From NCBI GenBank assembly GCA_951406725.2, contig OX597818.1:79918001-79982000 (forward strand): a DNA stretch of 64,000 nucleotides, read 5' to 3'. Each line of letters begins with the position of its first letter. Positions within the stretch are counted from its first letter, which is position 1. Both the position numbers and the translations under genes were made by a program. Under the pieces are notes generated by a model that saw nothing but the letters and a program-made list of their open reading frames with translations, made no database searches and had not been told where the DNA came from. The stretch is from Octopus vulgaris (taxonomy: Eukaryota). Positions 6,400 to 49,692 of this stretch are shown here, piece after piece.

Positions 6400-6577
6400 A
6401 GGGTCTAGTCGAACGAATCGACCCCAGTATATATTTTTCTAAGTCTGGTACTTACTTTATTGGTTTCTTTTACCGAAACACTAAGTTTCGAGGATGTAAA
6501 CAAACCAACACCGGTTTTTCAAACGATTGTGAGGAGACAGAAGCAAACACAAAAACGCGCATACATGTGTATATATA
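6400..6577 (-). mobile_element. SINE family A 3' half; Tc1 inserted at its TA tract
   Basis: TAGTCGAACGAATCGACCCCAG...GATGTAAACAAACCAACACCGG matches 17000-17200. Confidence 0.6.
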
Positions 6578-6579
6578 TA

Positions 6580-9010
<2,431 letters not shown>

Positions 9011-20782: not shown

Positions 20783-20833
<51 letters not shown>

Positions 20834-20840
<7 letters not shown>

Positions 20841-21583
20841 TCAATATAGGGTGGCAAAAAATTTCGTAGAATTTTTTTCCACCAGCGGCCTAGTGGGAAA
20901 AAATTAAATAGTCATAGACCATTTATAAATTCAACATCAAAATCAAGGAACGGCCATAATAGGCCATTCACCCACTAGAAATAACAGCTAAAGCTTCAAC
21001 CGCAAAACAACATTAATTCCGCAAACCAGGAGAAAATTAAAAAAACATTTACCCTGTAGTTCCTTATACGATGCACCGTTTCATCTATTGATTTTGATGT
21101 TGAATTTATAAATGGTCTATGACTATTTAATTTTTTCCCACTAGGCCGCTGGTGGCAAAAAAATTCTACGAAATTTTTTGCCACCCTATATTGATTAATT
21201 ATGAATTTTCTGGTTAATTCCGTAATGGAATCGGCGGCTTATATTTGCTGCCGATAAATTTGGCGCGATTGCGATGATTTGAAAATTTTAGGTCAGATAT
21301 TGCCGAGACAGTGATTGAAGTGCCTCGTGTAAATATCTGCTCCGATCTGGCTGTTCTTACTGACGAATCTATCGGCCTATGGAAGACTAGCTTGATTTAA
21401 TTTAATCAGGTTAGTTTACCATTAAACAATAGATGAAACGGTGCATCGTATAAGGAACTACAGGGTAAATGTTTTTTTAATTTTCTCCTGGTTTGCGGAA
21501 TTAATGTTGTTTTGCGGTTGAAGCTTTGGCTGTTATTTCTAGTGGGTGAATGGCCTATTATGGCCGTTCCTTGATTTTGATGA
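20834..21583 (+). mobile_element. HHR-bearing retrozyme-like / Penelope pLTR insertion: inverted leader plus 483-bp permuted monomer, in (TA)n
   Basis: A-B-A'-C-B' arrangement; TTGATTTTGATG repeated at 21088 and 21571; (TA)n on both sides. Confidence 0.75.
21353..21458 (+). ncRNA. type I hammerhead ribozyme
   Basis: Stem I GTTCTTA/TAAGGAAC, CTGACGA (21360-66), stem II ATCTAT/ATAGAT with extended hairpin, GAAA (21435-38), stem III CGG-TGCA-TCG, GTA cleavage triplet (21448-50). Confidence 0.8.
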
Positions 21584-21814
21584 TATATATATATATATAT
21601 ATATTATCTACATGCTTTCAAGCACTCTACTTAATTCTGTATTTATATATTAACGAGCAGGAATGAAAAACGGAACCGAATGAAAGAATGAAATATTGAA
21701 AGAATTGAAGAATAAGAAAATAAAGACGCAAACAAACATGAAAAGAAGAAATGTGAGAAAAATGCATGAGAGTTTTACCAATGAAAGAAAAAAGACTAAG
21801 AGAGAGAAGGGGAG

Positions 21815-26464: not shown

Positions 26465-27278
26465 AAAAATACAAACTGGGACAAGAACGCAAAACATTTA
26501 GAAGACGATACAAAAAACACGGACGGGGCATTCGAAGCCTTCAATCTTCAGTCAAGAACCGGATCATCCTCGCAATTTCGGCTGATTAATCTTGACACGA
26601 ATAAGAATACAAAAATACTTAAAAACAATAATGATAATAATAATAACAAAAACAGGACGTCACAGACAGGCGTCTTTCGACAGGACGAATATATATACAT
26701 ATCATTCAAAATGTGACCGCGTGTGTACCGTTGGCGATTTTTTTTCCTCCGTCTTCTCTTCTCTGGATCTTTCCTTTTCCTATGTTTCTGACGAAGAGCT
26801 CCGCTCGAAACGTAAAGCCCTCCTTCTTCCCTTCATTCCTGAGCGTCCAATAATACTATATTTGTTCCACGTCACCCATGCATACCAGCCTCCCCTCTCC
26901 ACGTCACCGATATCATCGAAGGGAAAGGCAACTGCCGATACAGCTTGGCACCAGTGACGTCGGAACTCATTTGTACAGCTGAGTGGTCTGGAGCAACGTG
27001 AAATAAAGTGTCTTGCTCAAGAAAACAACACGCAGCCCCGTCCGGGATTCGAACTCCCAATCTCACGGTCGTAAGTTCGATGATCTGACCACTGAGCATT
27101 ATATACGTATACATACGACGGGCTTCTTTCATTTTTCGTCTACCAAATCCACTCATAAGGCTTTGGTCGGCCCGAGGCTATAGTAGAAGAAACTGGCCCA
27201 AGGTGCCACGCAGTGGGACTGAACCCGGAACCATGTGGCTGGTAAGCAAGCTACTTACCACACAGCCATGCCTGCGCC
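26210..27278 (-). mobile_element. SINE family A split by nested insertions in its (TA)n
   Basis: 3' half 26210-26400 and 5' half 27115-27278 flank PLE-like and SINE inserts. Confidence 0.8.
26784..26818 (+). ncRNA. minimal type I hammerhead motif (PLE pLTR type)
   Basis: GTTT CTGACGA A GAGC tcc GCTC GAAA C GTA AAGC; palindromic ACGT in place of stem III. Confidence 0.7.
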
Positions 27279-35371: not shown

Positions 35372-36637
35372 TTAGGTAGTCAAGAACGTTCTTGTGGAAT
35401 TTTTAATTTTTCTTTTAAATGATGTATTTTCAAATTAATTTTCGTTAAATTACTTTGACTTCATATATCATTTTAAAGCCCATTTTTCGCTCTATCTAAT
35501 CGTGTTACACTTTTTCTTTGTGAATAATTAGGCCATTTTTTCTGGAACGTTGAAAACAACATGAACAAAAAGCAAATTCGCACAATGTTATTATTCCAGT
35601 TCAAGCTAGGCCGAAAAGCAGCGGAAACAACTCGCGATATCAACGATGCATTTGGCCCAGGAAGTAATAATGAACGTGCAGCACAATGGTGGTTCAAGAA
35701 ATTTCGTAGCGGTGATGAGAATCTTGAAGCTGATAAGCGTAGTGGTCGGCCATCGGATGTTGATAACGATCAACTAAGTGCCTTATTGGAAGCCAATCCA
35801 CGCACAATTGTTCGAGAGCTTGCTTCTGAATTAGACGTAACGTATACGACAATTTCCAACCACTTGAAAGAGATTGGAAAAACAAAAATAATTGAACGAC
35901 AACCAAAAAAGAAAACGCCGTTTTGAAGTGTCGTCTTCCCTTCTTTTACGCAACAAGAACGACCCGTTTCTCAACCGGATTGTGACTTGCAATGAAAAGT
36001 GGATTCTTTACGGCAACCGGCGACGCTCAGCTCAGTAGTTGGACGCCGACGAAGTTCCACAGCACTTCCCGAAGCCAGAGTTTCACCAATAGAAGGTTAT
36101 AGTGACTGTTTGGTGGTTTGTGGCCGGTCTCATCCATCACAGCTTTTTGGATCCAGGCGAAACCATTACGGCGGAGAAGTACTGTCAGCAAATGGATGAC
36201 ATGCATAATAAACTCCGACAACAACAGCCAGCATTGGTCAATAGAAAAAGACCAATTCTTCTCCACGATAACATTCGGCCGCACGTCGCACAACTGACCC
36301 TGCAGACGTTGAACGAATTGGGCTACGAAGCTCTGCCTCATTCGCCATACTCACCAGACCTCTCACCTACCGACTACCACTTTTTCAAGCATCTCGACAA
36401 CTTCTTGCGTGAGAAATGCTTCAAAAACCAAGACGATGCCAAACACGCCTTCAACGACTCAATCGCCACCAGAACGGAGGATTTTTACGCTACTGGCGTA
36501 AATAAACTTGTTTAGTGTTGGCAAAAGTGTGTTGGTTCTGATGGTGTTTATTTCGATTAATAAAGTTTTGCATGAGCCTAGACATTTGCATCTGAATTTA
36601 AAGGTTAACAACCGCAAGAACTTTCTTGATAACCTAA
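35372..36637 (+). mobile_element. mariner (cecropia subfamily, Hsmar1-like), full length, decayed
   Basis: TIRs TTAGGTAGTCAAGAACGTTCTTGTGG / CCGCAAGAACTTTCTTGATAACCTAA with TA on both sides. Confidence 0.93.
35561..36560 (+). pseudogene. mariner transposase pseudogene
   Basis: KKQIR..FKLGRKAAETTRDIN, TCNEKW, LLHDNIRPH, YSPDLSPTDYHFFKHLDNFL, YFD*; WVPHEL linker deleted; several stops. Confidence 0.92.
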
Positions 36638-45482: not shown

Positions 45483-46150
45483 TTATTAAAGATATAAAGT
45501 ATAAAAGCCATCTCAATATGGCTAACCACAAAGTGGGGGTGTTACTGTAGCTTTTTAGCCCCAGGAGATCATCGTTTCCAGCTGGTTTTAGACACACTTT
45601 CTGTGCCCTTGAAGTATTTGCAAAGGGAGGCCATCCCTTCCTCGCAAGATGATCTCCTGGGGCTAAAAAGCTACAGTAACACCCCCACTTTGTGGTTAGC
45701 CATTTTGAGATGGCTTTTATACTTTACATTGTCGAGCTGTTACTGTTTACATCTCGCTCTGAGATTTAATAATGCTTACAGTCAGTTTTTCGAAATCAGT
45801 GGCAGGCGTCACTAGAAAAACTCTTATATATTTGCAAAGCAGGCCTTGTCTTTCATCGTGACCTGGTGGTTACCGCCCGTTGATAAGAGACAATAATCTC
45901 GAAACCTTTCCGTGCGTATCACTCAGGCTTGCGAGGAAGGGATGGCCTCCCTTTGCAAATACTTCAAGGGCACAGAAAGTGTGTCTAAAGCCAGCTGGAG
46001 ACGATGATCCCCTGGGGCTAAAAAGCTACAGTAACCCCTACCCCCCACTTTGTGATTAGCCATATTGAGATGGCTTTTATACTTTACATTGTTGAGTGGT
46101 TACTGTTTACATCTCGCTCTGAGATTTAATAATACTTATTAAAGATATAA
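45483..46150 (+). mobile_element. retrozyme-like / PLE pLTR insertion: inverted leader plus about 1.4 copies of a 355-bp unit, 15-bp TSD
   Basis: Direct repeats start at 45648 and 46003; 45495-45647 is the reverse complement of 45929-46086; TTATTAAAGATATAA at 45483-97 and 46136-50. Confidence 0.75.
45874..45916 (+). ncRNA. degenerate minimal type I hammerhead motif
   Basis: CGCCCG TTGATAA GAGA caataa TCTC GAAAC CTTTC CGTGCG; stems I and II recognisable, core mutated. Confidence 0.5.
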
Positions 46151-47554: not shown

Positions 47555-49692
47555 AGCCAAACTGTGATGTCAGAGGTGTGAGAGCATTGGAGGAACCTAG
47601 TTTCAATGTGGCTAGATTACAAGAAAGACTTTGACTCTGTTCCCCACTCATGGATGCTAGAAGCCCTTCAACATGCTAACGTTCCAGTAAGAATAGTCAA
47701 AGCCATAGCTGACCTGACTTCATCGTGGGCCAACATCTTGAAATTAAACACAAAGAGTGACTGTATTATCACCGATAGAATACAATATCGCAAAGGCATA
47801 TTCCAAGGAGACAGCCTAACTGTGATGTTGTTTACACTTTCTGTAAACCGCTTGTCATTCATCTTAAGGAACTCTGAAGGATATCTCACTGGTTCACAAG
47901 GAAACAAAAATGCCAAAATTACATACTGTCTCTTTGTGCGTGATTTAAAACTGAATGCAAAGAATATGCACGAGATGACCTAGTTACAACATTCTCAAAG
48001 GATGCAGGGTTGGAGTTTGGTCAGAATAAATGTTGTTATATGATTGTGAAAAGGAGGAAGAGCATAAACCAGACTAGTAACATCTCCATCAATGCTTTGA
48101 CTGTTTCCCCTGTATCTGACGAGGAATGTTGCAGGTATCTAGGGGAGGATGAAAATATATTTTACAATGGTACCTGTAACAAAACACGTGTCACTAAAGA
48201 ATATTACAGCCGAATAAAGAAATTTGGACTTCAGAACTCTCTGCATTCAATAAAACAGTGGCTCACAATGTATTTGCAGTGCCAGTACTCATACCAACAT
48301 TTGGGCTGCTTGATTGAACGTTTGATGAGATCGAAGCCATTGATGTGAAATCCTGAAAAATACTAACAAGCCCACATAATTTCCACATAAACAGTGACAT
48401 AGACCATCTCTACCTTAAACGTAAAAAAGGCGGCAGAGACTTAACATCGATCCAAAATGCCTTTGAATGTCGCATCATATTCCGTCGGCAACGTCTTTTA
48501 ACCACCACCAAGTTTGCATACATGATGCTGATAACATCATAAGACTTGGAAGGCAACCGCTTGAGCAACAATCTGTCTGATAACCTAGAATACATGCCCA
48601 AAGAAGTTACACGGCTCTACCATAACGTATCATCAGATAAAAGGGTGAGCCTATATAATCAGAGGACTATGCATGGATATGTTAGTAGAAAGCTCAGTGA
48701 TGATACTAACATCGATCATCAAAGCAATTTATCATGGACGAATAGTCGGATTACTACCTCCCACTTTGAAGGGTATGCATTTGCAATCCAGAAACAGGAA
48801 ATATCAACCAAGTACCTGATGCACAAAAGCCGTAAAATGTGACAACCGATGCGGACTTTGTGGAGTTCACACTGAAGATATCAACCACATCATAAGCAGT
48901 TGTCCGAAAATGTCATCACGGTATTATCTACCAATGAGACATGACGTTGTAGTTAGGACACTCCATAGTAAAATCCGTACGAAGGATAATCCCGAGGACA
49001 AAGAAATAAAAACCCATTATATGGTAAAAGCCATAGCCACTCATAATGAAAAGGAATACTGGTGGAATGTACCAGTGAAGACCTCAATAAAATGTAAGCA
49101 CAACAGACCTGATATAATGATTTGAGATAGAGAAGGAAAGCTGTGCACAGTTGTGGAAATTAGCTGCCCAGCGGATGTTAACATAAAGCTGAAGATCAGT
49201 GAAAAAGAGAACAGCTGTGCTGAACTATTGAGAAATCTGCAATTATTCTATCCAGGTTACAAATTCTTGTTTATATTTGTAATTATTGGAGTCCTGGGAT
49301 ATGTAACACACTGCCTAAATACAAGTCTTGAGAAATTAGGTTTCTCAAAGCCAGAAAGGAAAAAGCTAATTCGAAGACTACAGATCCAGTCCATCACTGG
49401 AACTGTAAAAATCTGTAAAACTTCCCAGTTTATCATTTAAATACATATGAGCATGTCAAGATATGTAACTATATTAATGAGAATACATACATAAAACATA
49501 CATACATGCATACATACATACATACATACATACATACATACATACATACATACATACATACATACATACATACATACATACATACATACCCTGGTGTTGA
49601 TTTTGAAATTCAATGAAGGAACCTTGGATCTACGTTAGAAACCGGTTCTTTCTCTATTGGCAAGAAATCTTGAAATAAACTGAATAATGACA
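47555..49692 (+). mobile_element. 5'-truncated R4/Dong-type RLE non-LTR retrotransposon, decayed
   Basis: RT motifs WLDYKKDFDSVPHSW, GIFQGDSL, LFVRDLKL; CCHC CRLCG..HIISSCP; RHD; RPDIMI..EISCP; 3' UTR contains (TACA)n. Confidence 0.9.

Follow-up and report, generated by a model that had tools for sequence, protein, structure and literature searches.

A dispersed copy of an abundant 483-nt hammerhead repeat in Octopus vulgaris, probably inserted by a Penelope-like enzyme

Introduction

A 750-base insert in a 64,000-nucleotide stretch of Octopus vulgaris DNA (contig OX597818.1; the whole stretch is referred to as the window) raises the question of which machinery placed it there and from what form of RNA it was copied. 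The initial annotation read it as a young, retrozyme-like element whose source had been circular or tandemly repeated. Two wider matters are still open: how the enzymes of Penelope-like elements (PLEs) create insertions that are both tandem and inverted, and whether the circular RNAs of retrozymes are real transposition templates (PMC8557442, PMC11167929, PMC7229834).

PLE insertions have been described in which partial tandems form a pseudo-LTR (pLTR) adjoining an inverted 5'-truncated copy, optionally with a tail of 30-40 bp (PMC8557442). In a rotifer PLE the inverted pLTR overlaps the direct one and head-to-head is the usual polarity; pLTR sequences were reported to suffice for mobilisation in trans (PMC3846280). 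A repeat end followed by a tail is the ordinary layout of inverted PLE heads (PMC3846280, PMC8557442), and where PLEs enter microsatellites the target duplications are unreadable (PMC8557442, PMC8969392). PAc, the purified PLE protein of Anolis, cuts both strands of AT-rich DNA and extends them, starting at two internal RNA sites that set the tail and lack homology to the target. The RNA that it copies in vitro is mainly uncleaved, and mutation of the ribozyme leaves insertion just as efficient (PMC11167929).

Animal retrozymes appear to be derived from pLTRs (bioRxiv 10.64898/2026.07.22.740005). Their circles were found in coral, mussel and axolotl (PMC7229834), and the mussel provides a molluscan retrozyme of approximately 350-390 bp (PMC7229834). 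The text of the preprint mentions no mollusc among its 35 species. The giant squid paper counts 235 Rfam hammerheads, given there without detail (PMC6962438), and in the O. vulgaris assembly Penelope-like elements amount to 6.83%, with 31 recently active families (PMC13282606). In the literature on octopus or cephalopod hammerheads, Penelope elements or retrozymes we found no description of the 483-nt family reported here, which may sit unnamed in repeat libraries.

Results

The insert is an inverted head and a forward body of one 483-nt unit

Self-alignment confirmed, to within 1-2 nt, the segment order A-B-A'-C-B' and the coordinates first given for it. The forward body (21088-21582, plus strand) is 495 nt long and consists of one 483-nt unit and a 12-nt terminal redundancy, a minimal pLTR; the 12-mer noticed earlier at both ends of the unit was found at 21088 and again at 21571, 483 nt apart. 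The inverted, 5'-truncated head (20833-21090, minus strand, 258 nt) corresponds to unit 21427-21582 running straight into 21100-21202. In reverse complement, segment A (20833-20946) matches 21088-21202 at 99.1% with one gap, and segment B (20935-21093) matches 21424-21582 at 98.7%, true homology beginning at 21427/21090. The inverted leader had been said to read B' directly into A'. It does so: the minus strand of the head aligned to the doubled unit across the end-to-start join with 1 substitution (20989 versus 21528) and one 1-nt gap.

The insert lies in (TA)n, as originally described, between (TA)26 on the left (20784-20835) and (AT)11 on the right (21583-21604). Microhomology was found at two of the three junctions: the last 3 nt of the left tract (TAT on the minus strand) are common to the 3' end of the head, and head and body overlap by TTG (21088-21090) at the head-to-head inversion joint. 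The right junction has none, the (AT)11 tract being without homology to the continuation of the unit. Since the target is a microsatellite, a target duplication is unreadable here.

The head exceeds the 3' end of the body by a tail of approximately 102 nt (20833-20934, minus strand; for the tail concept see PMC3846280, PMC11167929). The 3' ends of body and head lie 132 and approximately 234 nt past the predicted ribozyme cut site. Both are preceded by the word TTGATT at 5-6 nt and by a hairpin at 13-17 nt; a strong hairpin (21151-21185, plus strand) ends 16-17 nt upstream of the 3' end of the head (unit position 21201/2), and another (21548-21569, plus strand) ends 13 nt upstream of that of the body. 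A third TTGATT in the unit precedes position 21403 or thereabouts. Such a word is common to 2,304 of 104,811 position pairs (2.2%) and the pattern was spotted post hoc, and we therefore treat it as a lead only.

The single substitution in 257 nt between the arms corresponds to approximately 0.5 million years, with an upper limit of 3, at an octopus rate (PMC13282606) and ignoring assembly error and conversion. Judged from the sequence, the insertion looks young.

The unit is non-coding and carries a type I hammerhead

The unit has a GC content of 37% and is non-coding, as are non-LTR retrozymes, for which GC is under 45%. Across the six frames of the doubled unit, stop-free stretches reach at most 60 aa, in agreement with the earlier remark that no long ORF is present. 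An endless reading frame on a circle (483 = 3 x 161) was ruled out, each of the six frames having 7-18 stops per turn. The reverse transcriptase (RT) and GIY-YIG frame of an autonomous PLE was not found in the insert; a Pfam scan of 15 selected frames from the window gave no GIY-YIG match, and its sole RT match lies in another element, at 47.6-49.4 kb. For the tRNA-like head of a tRNA-derived SINE, ARAGORN predicted 0 genes and Rfam at E ≤ 10 matched no tRNA, although a decayed head can be missed by both programs. The predicted fold of the unit was better than that of 100 of 100 shuffles (z = -7.6). Several variants outside the hammerhead disrupt predicted pairs when taken singly, and the whole-unit fold is therefore unsupported by covariation.

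A type I hammerhead was located at 21354-21456 (plus strand) by descriptor match and fold prediction, and the motif is predicted to cut its own RNA after 21450. Stem I has 6 bp (21354-59/21451-56), the core occupies 21360-66 with GAAA at 21435-38, stem II has 6 bp (21367-72/21429-34) and encloses an insert of approximately 55 nt with a 14-bp hairpin, and stem III has 4 bp with a palindromic 4-nt loop (21442-45). An A-U pair is found where G10.1-C11.1 is usual. The initial annotation had called the motif complete, and the descriptor returned one complete match in 64 kb on both strands. Among 20,000 dinucleotide shuffles of the unit, a loose descriptor match was seen in 4 and stems of at least 6/6/3 bp in none. 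The head carries just the 3' half of the hammerhead, on the opposite strand.

Rfam gave no match at gathering score in the 64 kb and 18 weak matches at E ≤ 10, none of them a hammerhead; the long stem II insert is probably why the motif is missed. The type I topology does not fit a plant LTR retrozyme, which has a type III hammerhead in true LTRs. A short helix III with a palindromic loop, as here, marks hammerheads that are described as acting in dimeric form (PMC4209133). In the predicted ground state of this copy the core is paired with helix III; the active fold is less stable than the ensemble by 5.4 kcal/mol, whether the RNA is modelled as linear or circular. A core paired off in this way would fit an uncleaved template.

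The unit belongs to a large repeat family

Of 24 public sequencing runs listed, 20, from 10 studies under four organism labels, contain the stretch wholly or partly, and none is recorded as RNA. The contigs of four of the 24 runs were aligned to 21088-21780; two of these runs were DNA-like and two RNA-like, the RNA status being a guess. The DNA-like runs gave 6,477 and 12,748 aligned contigs, and such thousands of distinct contigs indicate a large family. Summed depth in these two runs was approximately 1e6 on the unit versus 50 and 88 on the unique 3' flank, which is no copy number. In run X1, 1,507 contigs were at least 99% like the unit, 2,723 were 95-99%, 1,964 were 90-95% and 283 were under 90% alike. 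With about a third of the aligned contigs under 95%, the family is diverged, and the youth claimed for the element as a whole thus applies to the insertion and not to the family.

Loose ends ahead of the unit start (before 21094) continue as the 3' end of the unit in all four runs (10, 12, 1 and 1 contigs), and the end-to-start join is therefore a property of the family. The join, at the locus and in the four runs, is what would be seen of head-to-tail repetition in contigs too short for full dimers. Among 40 of the 97 variant rows, the catalytic core varies at two positions only, N7 (21364) and H17 (21450), both of them free. Variants at 21387, 21389 and 21455 keep pairing, while some in stem II break predicted pairs when taken singly. 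At 21170, 21429, 21455, 21458 and 21509 the body carries a minority letter (other letters have 71-99% of the depth), and the head carries the identical letters, which argues that both arms came from one source lineage.

The share of C at H17 (21450) was 44% and 54% in the two RNA-like runs compared to 1% and 7% in the two DNA-like runs (4 contigs each). The different subfamily mix in the RNA-like runs, at 21450 and at 21364-21373, is a hint of what could be selective transcription, or a contig artefact or graph fragmentation. Coverage of the unit in the RNA-like runs was not used as evidence of expression, because DNA carry-over of a high-copy repeat could give the same. An opposite-strand joint at 21268/21301 (depth 48) was observed in run X2, under another organism label, and marks a further family copy with an inversion point of its own.

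Outside these runs, a 22-nt family motif had 0 matches in viral and 0 in prokaryote contigs. An 18-nt motif matched 48 metagenome loci, none extending beyond 24 nt; as the likeness stops there, these were rejected as chance matches.

Other elements in the window

A second insert (45483-46150) has the same anatomy and no sequence relation, with an inverted head at 45492-45648 and a forward partial tandem at 45648-46138. Its period is approximately 355-360 nt, and it holds 1.37 units. The target is duplicated over 15 bp, and an extension of 49 nt is present on the side of the body. At 45880 lies what may be a U3-A8 variant of the hammerhead core, with no clean helix I; 65 of 20,000 shuffles match it. 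At 26783-26817 we observed a minimal type I hammerhead that looks intact, with its core, a bulged A, a stem II of 4 bp, a minimal helix III and a helix I of 4 bp. This motif, at 26788, lies in what is probably the truncated end of a Penelope element, with (TA)n on one side and a SINE-like repeat on the other. The three hammerhead-related elements in the window showed no homology to one another above that of shuffles. The second insert and the hammerhead at 26788 mean that such structures are not rare in the window.

The window also contains a Tc1-type transposon (6561-8215), whose terminal inverted repeats are approximately 85% alike and whose transposase frame is interrupted by a stop, a decayed mariner transposase in two frames (35528-36515), and a decayed non-LTR retrotransposon with RT and zinc-knuckle fragments (47582-49440). 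The C-terminal part of the last presumably resembles a restriction-enzyme-like endonuclease.

The anatomy agrees with insertion by a PLE enzyme

The insert matches the published PLE pattern of an inverted 5'-truncated copy placed head-to-head at the 5' end of a partial tandem, and its (TA)26 and (AT)11 flanks are the AT-rich or microsatellite target of such insertions. In PLE terms, B' may be regarded as the repeat end, the 12-mer as a minimal pLTR and A as the tail, although the head extension, of approximately 102 nt, compares to 30-40 nt published for PLE tails. The view of the element as retrozyme-like with a PLE-type insertion is supported: the unit is non-coding, hammerhead-bearing and self-closing, and its join is family-wide. 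Against the reading of the insert as a retrozyme-type copy placed by a PLE stand the long tail, the single complete hammerhead of the locus (no array with two was seen), the A-U pair in place of G10.1-C11.1, the variants that break predicted pairs outside the hammerhead, the absence of the inversion junction of the locus from the joints of the four runs, and, as described below, the drop in depth at 21304-21351 and the contigs of the RNA-like runs that leave the unit for unlike sequence.

On balance we think it probable that an abundant 483-nt hammerhead repeat, dispersed and non-coding, gave rise to the insert as one of its copies, likely reverse-transcribed and inserted in trans by a PLE enzyme and probably from longer-than-unit RNA with an intact ribozyme site. 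A tandem source locus would be transcribed into more-than-unit RNA, and a PLE GIY-YIG endonuclease would cut both strands of the (TA)n tract. Both DNA ends would then be joined to cDNA begun at two internal RNA positions, 132 and approximately 234 nt past the cut site, which would leave the tail of approximately 102 nt. Both copies would be 5'-truncated, at 495 and 258 nt, and would meet head-to-head at the 3-nt microhomology. An identical product would result from self-priming on the first cDNA. The two internal starts of PAc and its use of uncleaved RNA account for the two 3' end positions and for both copies crossing the cut site.

The template may have been linear or circular

Both copied strands cross the ribozyme cut site, and the template was therefore uncleaved or re-ligated; the sequence requires an intact or re-sealed cut site and an end-to-start join. 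A linear RNA of approximately 1.24 units suffices, and a circle suffices too. Of the proposal that the source had been circular or tandem, the need for a more-than-unit template stands. A circle is not singled out by it, since PLE heads are ordinarily laid out in this way and a purified PLE enzyme uses uncleaved linear RNA. Among the possible templates we put an uncleaved linear multimer at slightly better than an even chance and a ligated circle at a good deal less than even, and an end-to-end jump between cleaved monomers is improbable.

The best surviving alternative keeps the PLE-mobilised retrozyme and changes the template to a covalently closed 483-nt circular RNA, formed by double self-cleavage and ligation and copied for one turn and 12 nt. 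The length of the body leans slightly towards it, as a truncation at random would stop so close to one unit only about once in 20 to once in 40 cases; the second insert in the window, however, has 1.37 units, and "one turn" is thus no rule. A circle would also have its cut site crossed by both copies, and so would the linear RNA of approximately 1.24 units with one uncut site, which explains both arms. Related animal retrozymes yield abundant circles (PMC7229834), and circles have been proposed as PLE templates (PMC4209133), but the dominant PLE substrate in vitro was uncleaved RNA (PMC11167929). The unit is highly structured and its ribozyme is predicted to be blocked, which may favour a circle. 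No run recorded as RNA contains the stretch, and contigs are unable to reveal circles. We regard the circle as possible, yet would sooner expect it to be wrong.

A bolder version, which we offer tentatively and think rather improbable as a whole, is that an undescribed retrozyme family of thousands of copies, probably of octopus, has a stem II arm of approximately 55 nt that hides it from Rfam, and that a PLE copies its 483-nt circular RNA directly from two sequence-defined starts, 5-6 nt after TTGATT following a GC-rich hairpin.

Other explanations

The insert could instead be the truncated end of an ordinary autonomous PLE whose long terminal repeat holds an internal 483-nt duplication. Such stumps are common and would have identical anatomy, and a canonical minimal hammerhead is present at 26788. 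In run X1 the depth falls up to approximately 500-fold at 21304-21351, and some contigs run into unlike sequence, 5% in X9 and 14% in X11, both RNA-like runs. In both DNA-like runs, however, the number of such contigs was 0, and the loose ends shown at this valley (24 of 187) resemble a diverged unit with indels. Moreover, A'-C-B' and B'-A' close a loop that leaves no room for an ORF, and no frame exceeds 60 aa. We consider this explanation unlikely.

An origin at the DNA level, in which a satellite-derived extrachromosomal circle or a break-repair product was caught at the fragile (TA)n without reverse transcription, would explain the tandem join, the microhomologies at two of the three junctions and the choice of a breakage-prone microsatellite. 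It does not sit well with the head-to-head polarity relative to the ribozyme strand and the terminal tail, which fit PLE insertion, with the recurrence of this anatomy together with a 15-bp target duplication in the second element, or with core variation confined to free positions (in the 40 of 97 variant rows), and it is very unlikely. An assembly or long-read fold-back artefact, suggested by the 99% identity of the inverted arms and by the inversion junction being absent from the joints of the four runs (it lies at the stretch edge, where repeat letters were skipped, and was probably masked), is hardly credible, as the join in the head is the real join of the family, a fold-back of the locus cannot yield the head because B' of the body precedes (AT)n and not A', and a merge of different copies is unlikely because the arms share five minority letters.

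Discussion

The locus is best compared to two groups of elements. With animal non-LTR retrozymes it shares a short non-coding unit of low GC that bears a type I hammerhead, a head-to-tail join, a high copy number and a proposed mobilisation by PLEs (PMC7229834; bioRxiv 10.64898/2026.07.22.740005). The unit had been thought somewhat larger than typical; its 483 nt fall inside the published retrozyme range of 51-972 bp (bioRxiv 10.64898/2026.07.22.740005). It differs by the stem II insert of approximately 55 nt and by a motif missed by Rfam. The preprint calls retrozymes active when at least two consecutive units have complete hammerheads (bioRxiv 10.64898/2026.07.22.740005). With one complete hammerhead, our locus counts by this rule as a monomer-type copy rather than an active array. 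It probably belongs to a retrozyme family that is itself a non-autonomous PLE derivative. The alternative first posed, of either a retrozyme or a pLTR remnant, is not sharp, since the same preprint derives animal retrozymes from pLTRs.

With the insertions of endonuclease-bearing PLEs (PMC3846280, PMC8557442, PMC11167929) the insert shares a head-to-head inverted 5'-truncated copy with an overlap of a few bases, a partial tandem, an optional tail at one end, an AT-rich or microsatellite target, and, upstream of the 3' ends, a hammerhead whose helix III is small and palindromic. The insert differs from these PLEs in having no RT or GIY-YIG frame and a tail of approximately 102 compared to 30-40 nt. 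The main start of PAc lies approximately 85-92 nt past the cut site (PMC11167929), compared to 132 and approximately 234 nt for the 3' ends of the insert. The non-autonomous PLEs called Chlamys, e.g., MRC1, are likewise non-coding, PLE-moved and able to form pLTRs and head-to-tail multimers; they differ in being algal, mostly without hammerheads and with known autonomous partners (PMC8557442). By analogy, the insert would behave as animal non-LTR retrozymes do when mobilised by a PLE; what sets it apart is the length of its stem II arm and of its tail.

The anatomy of the locus has been described before and is largely explained by known PLE biology, and a single locus does not settle the template question. 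The long stem II arm illustrates that abundant hammerheads can escape standard models. In a high-copy, non-coding family with readable ends, body lengths modulo 483 together with the positions of the 3' ends would separate a circular from a linear template. If this is indeed an undescribed family copied from circles, the ends of its copies would allow the circle-template model of PLE and retrozyme insertion to be tested on the scale of a genome.
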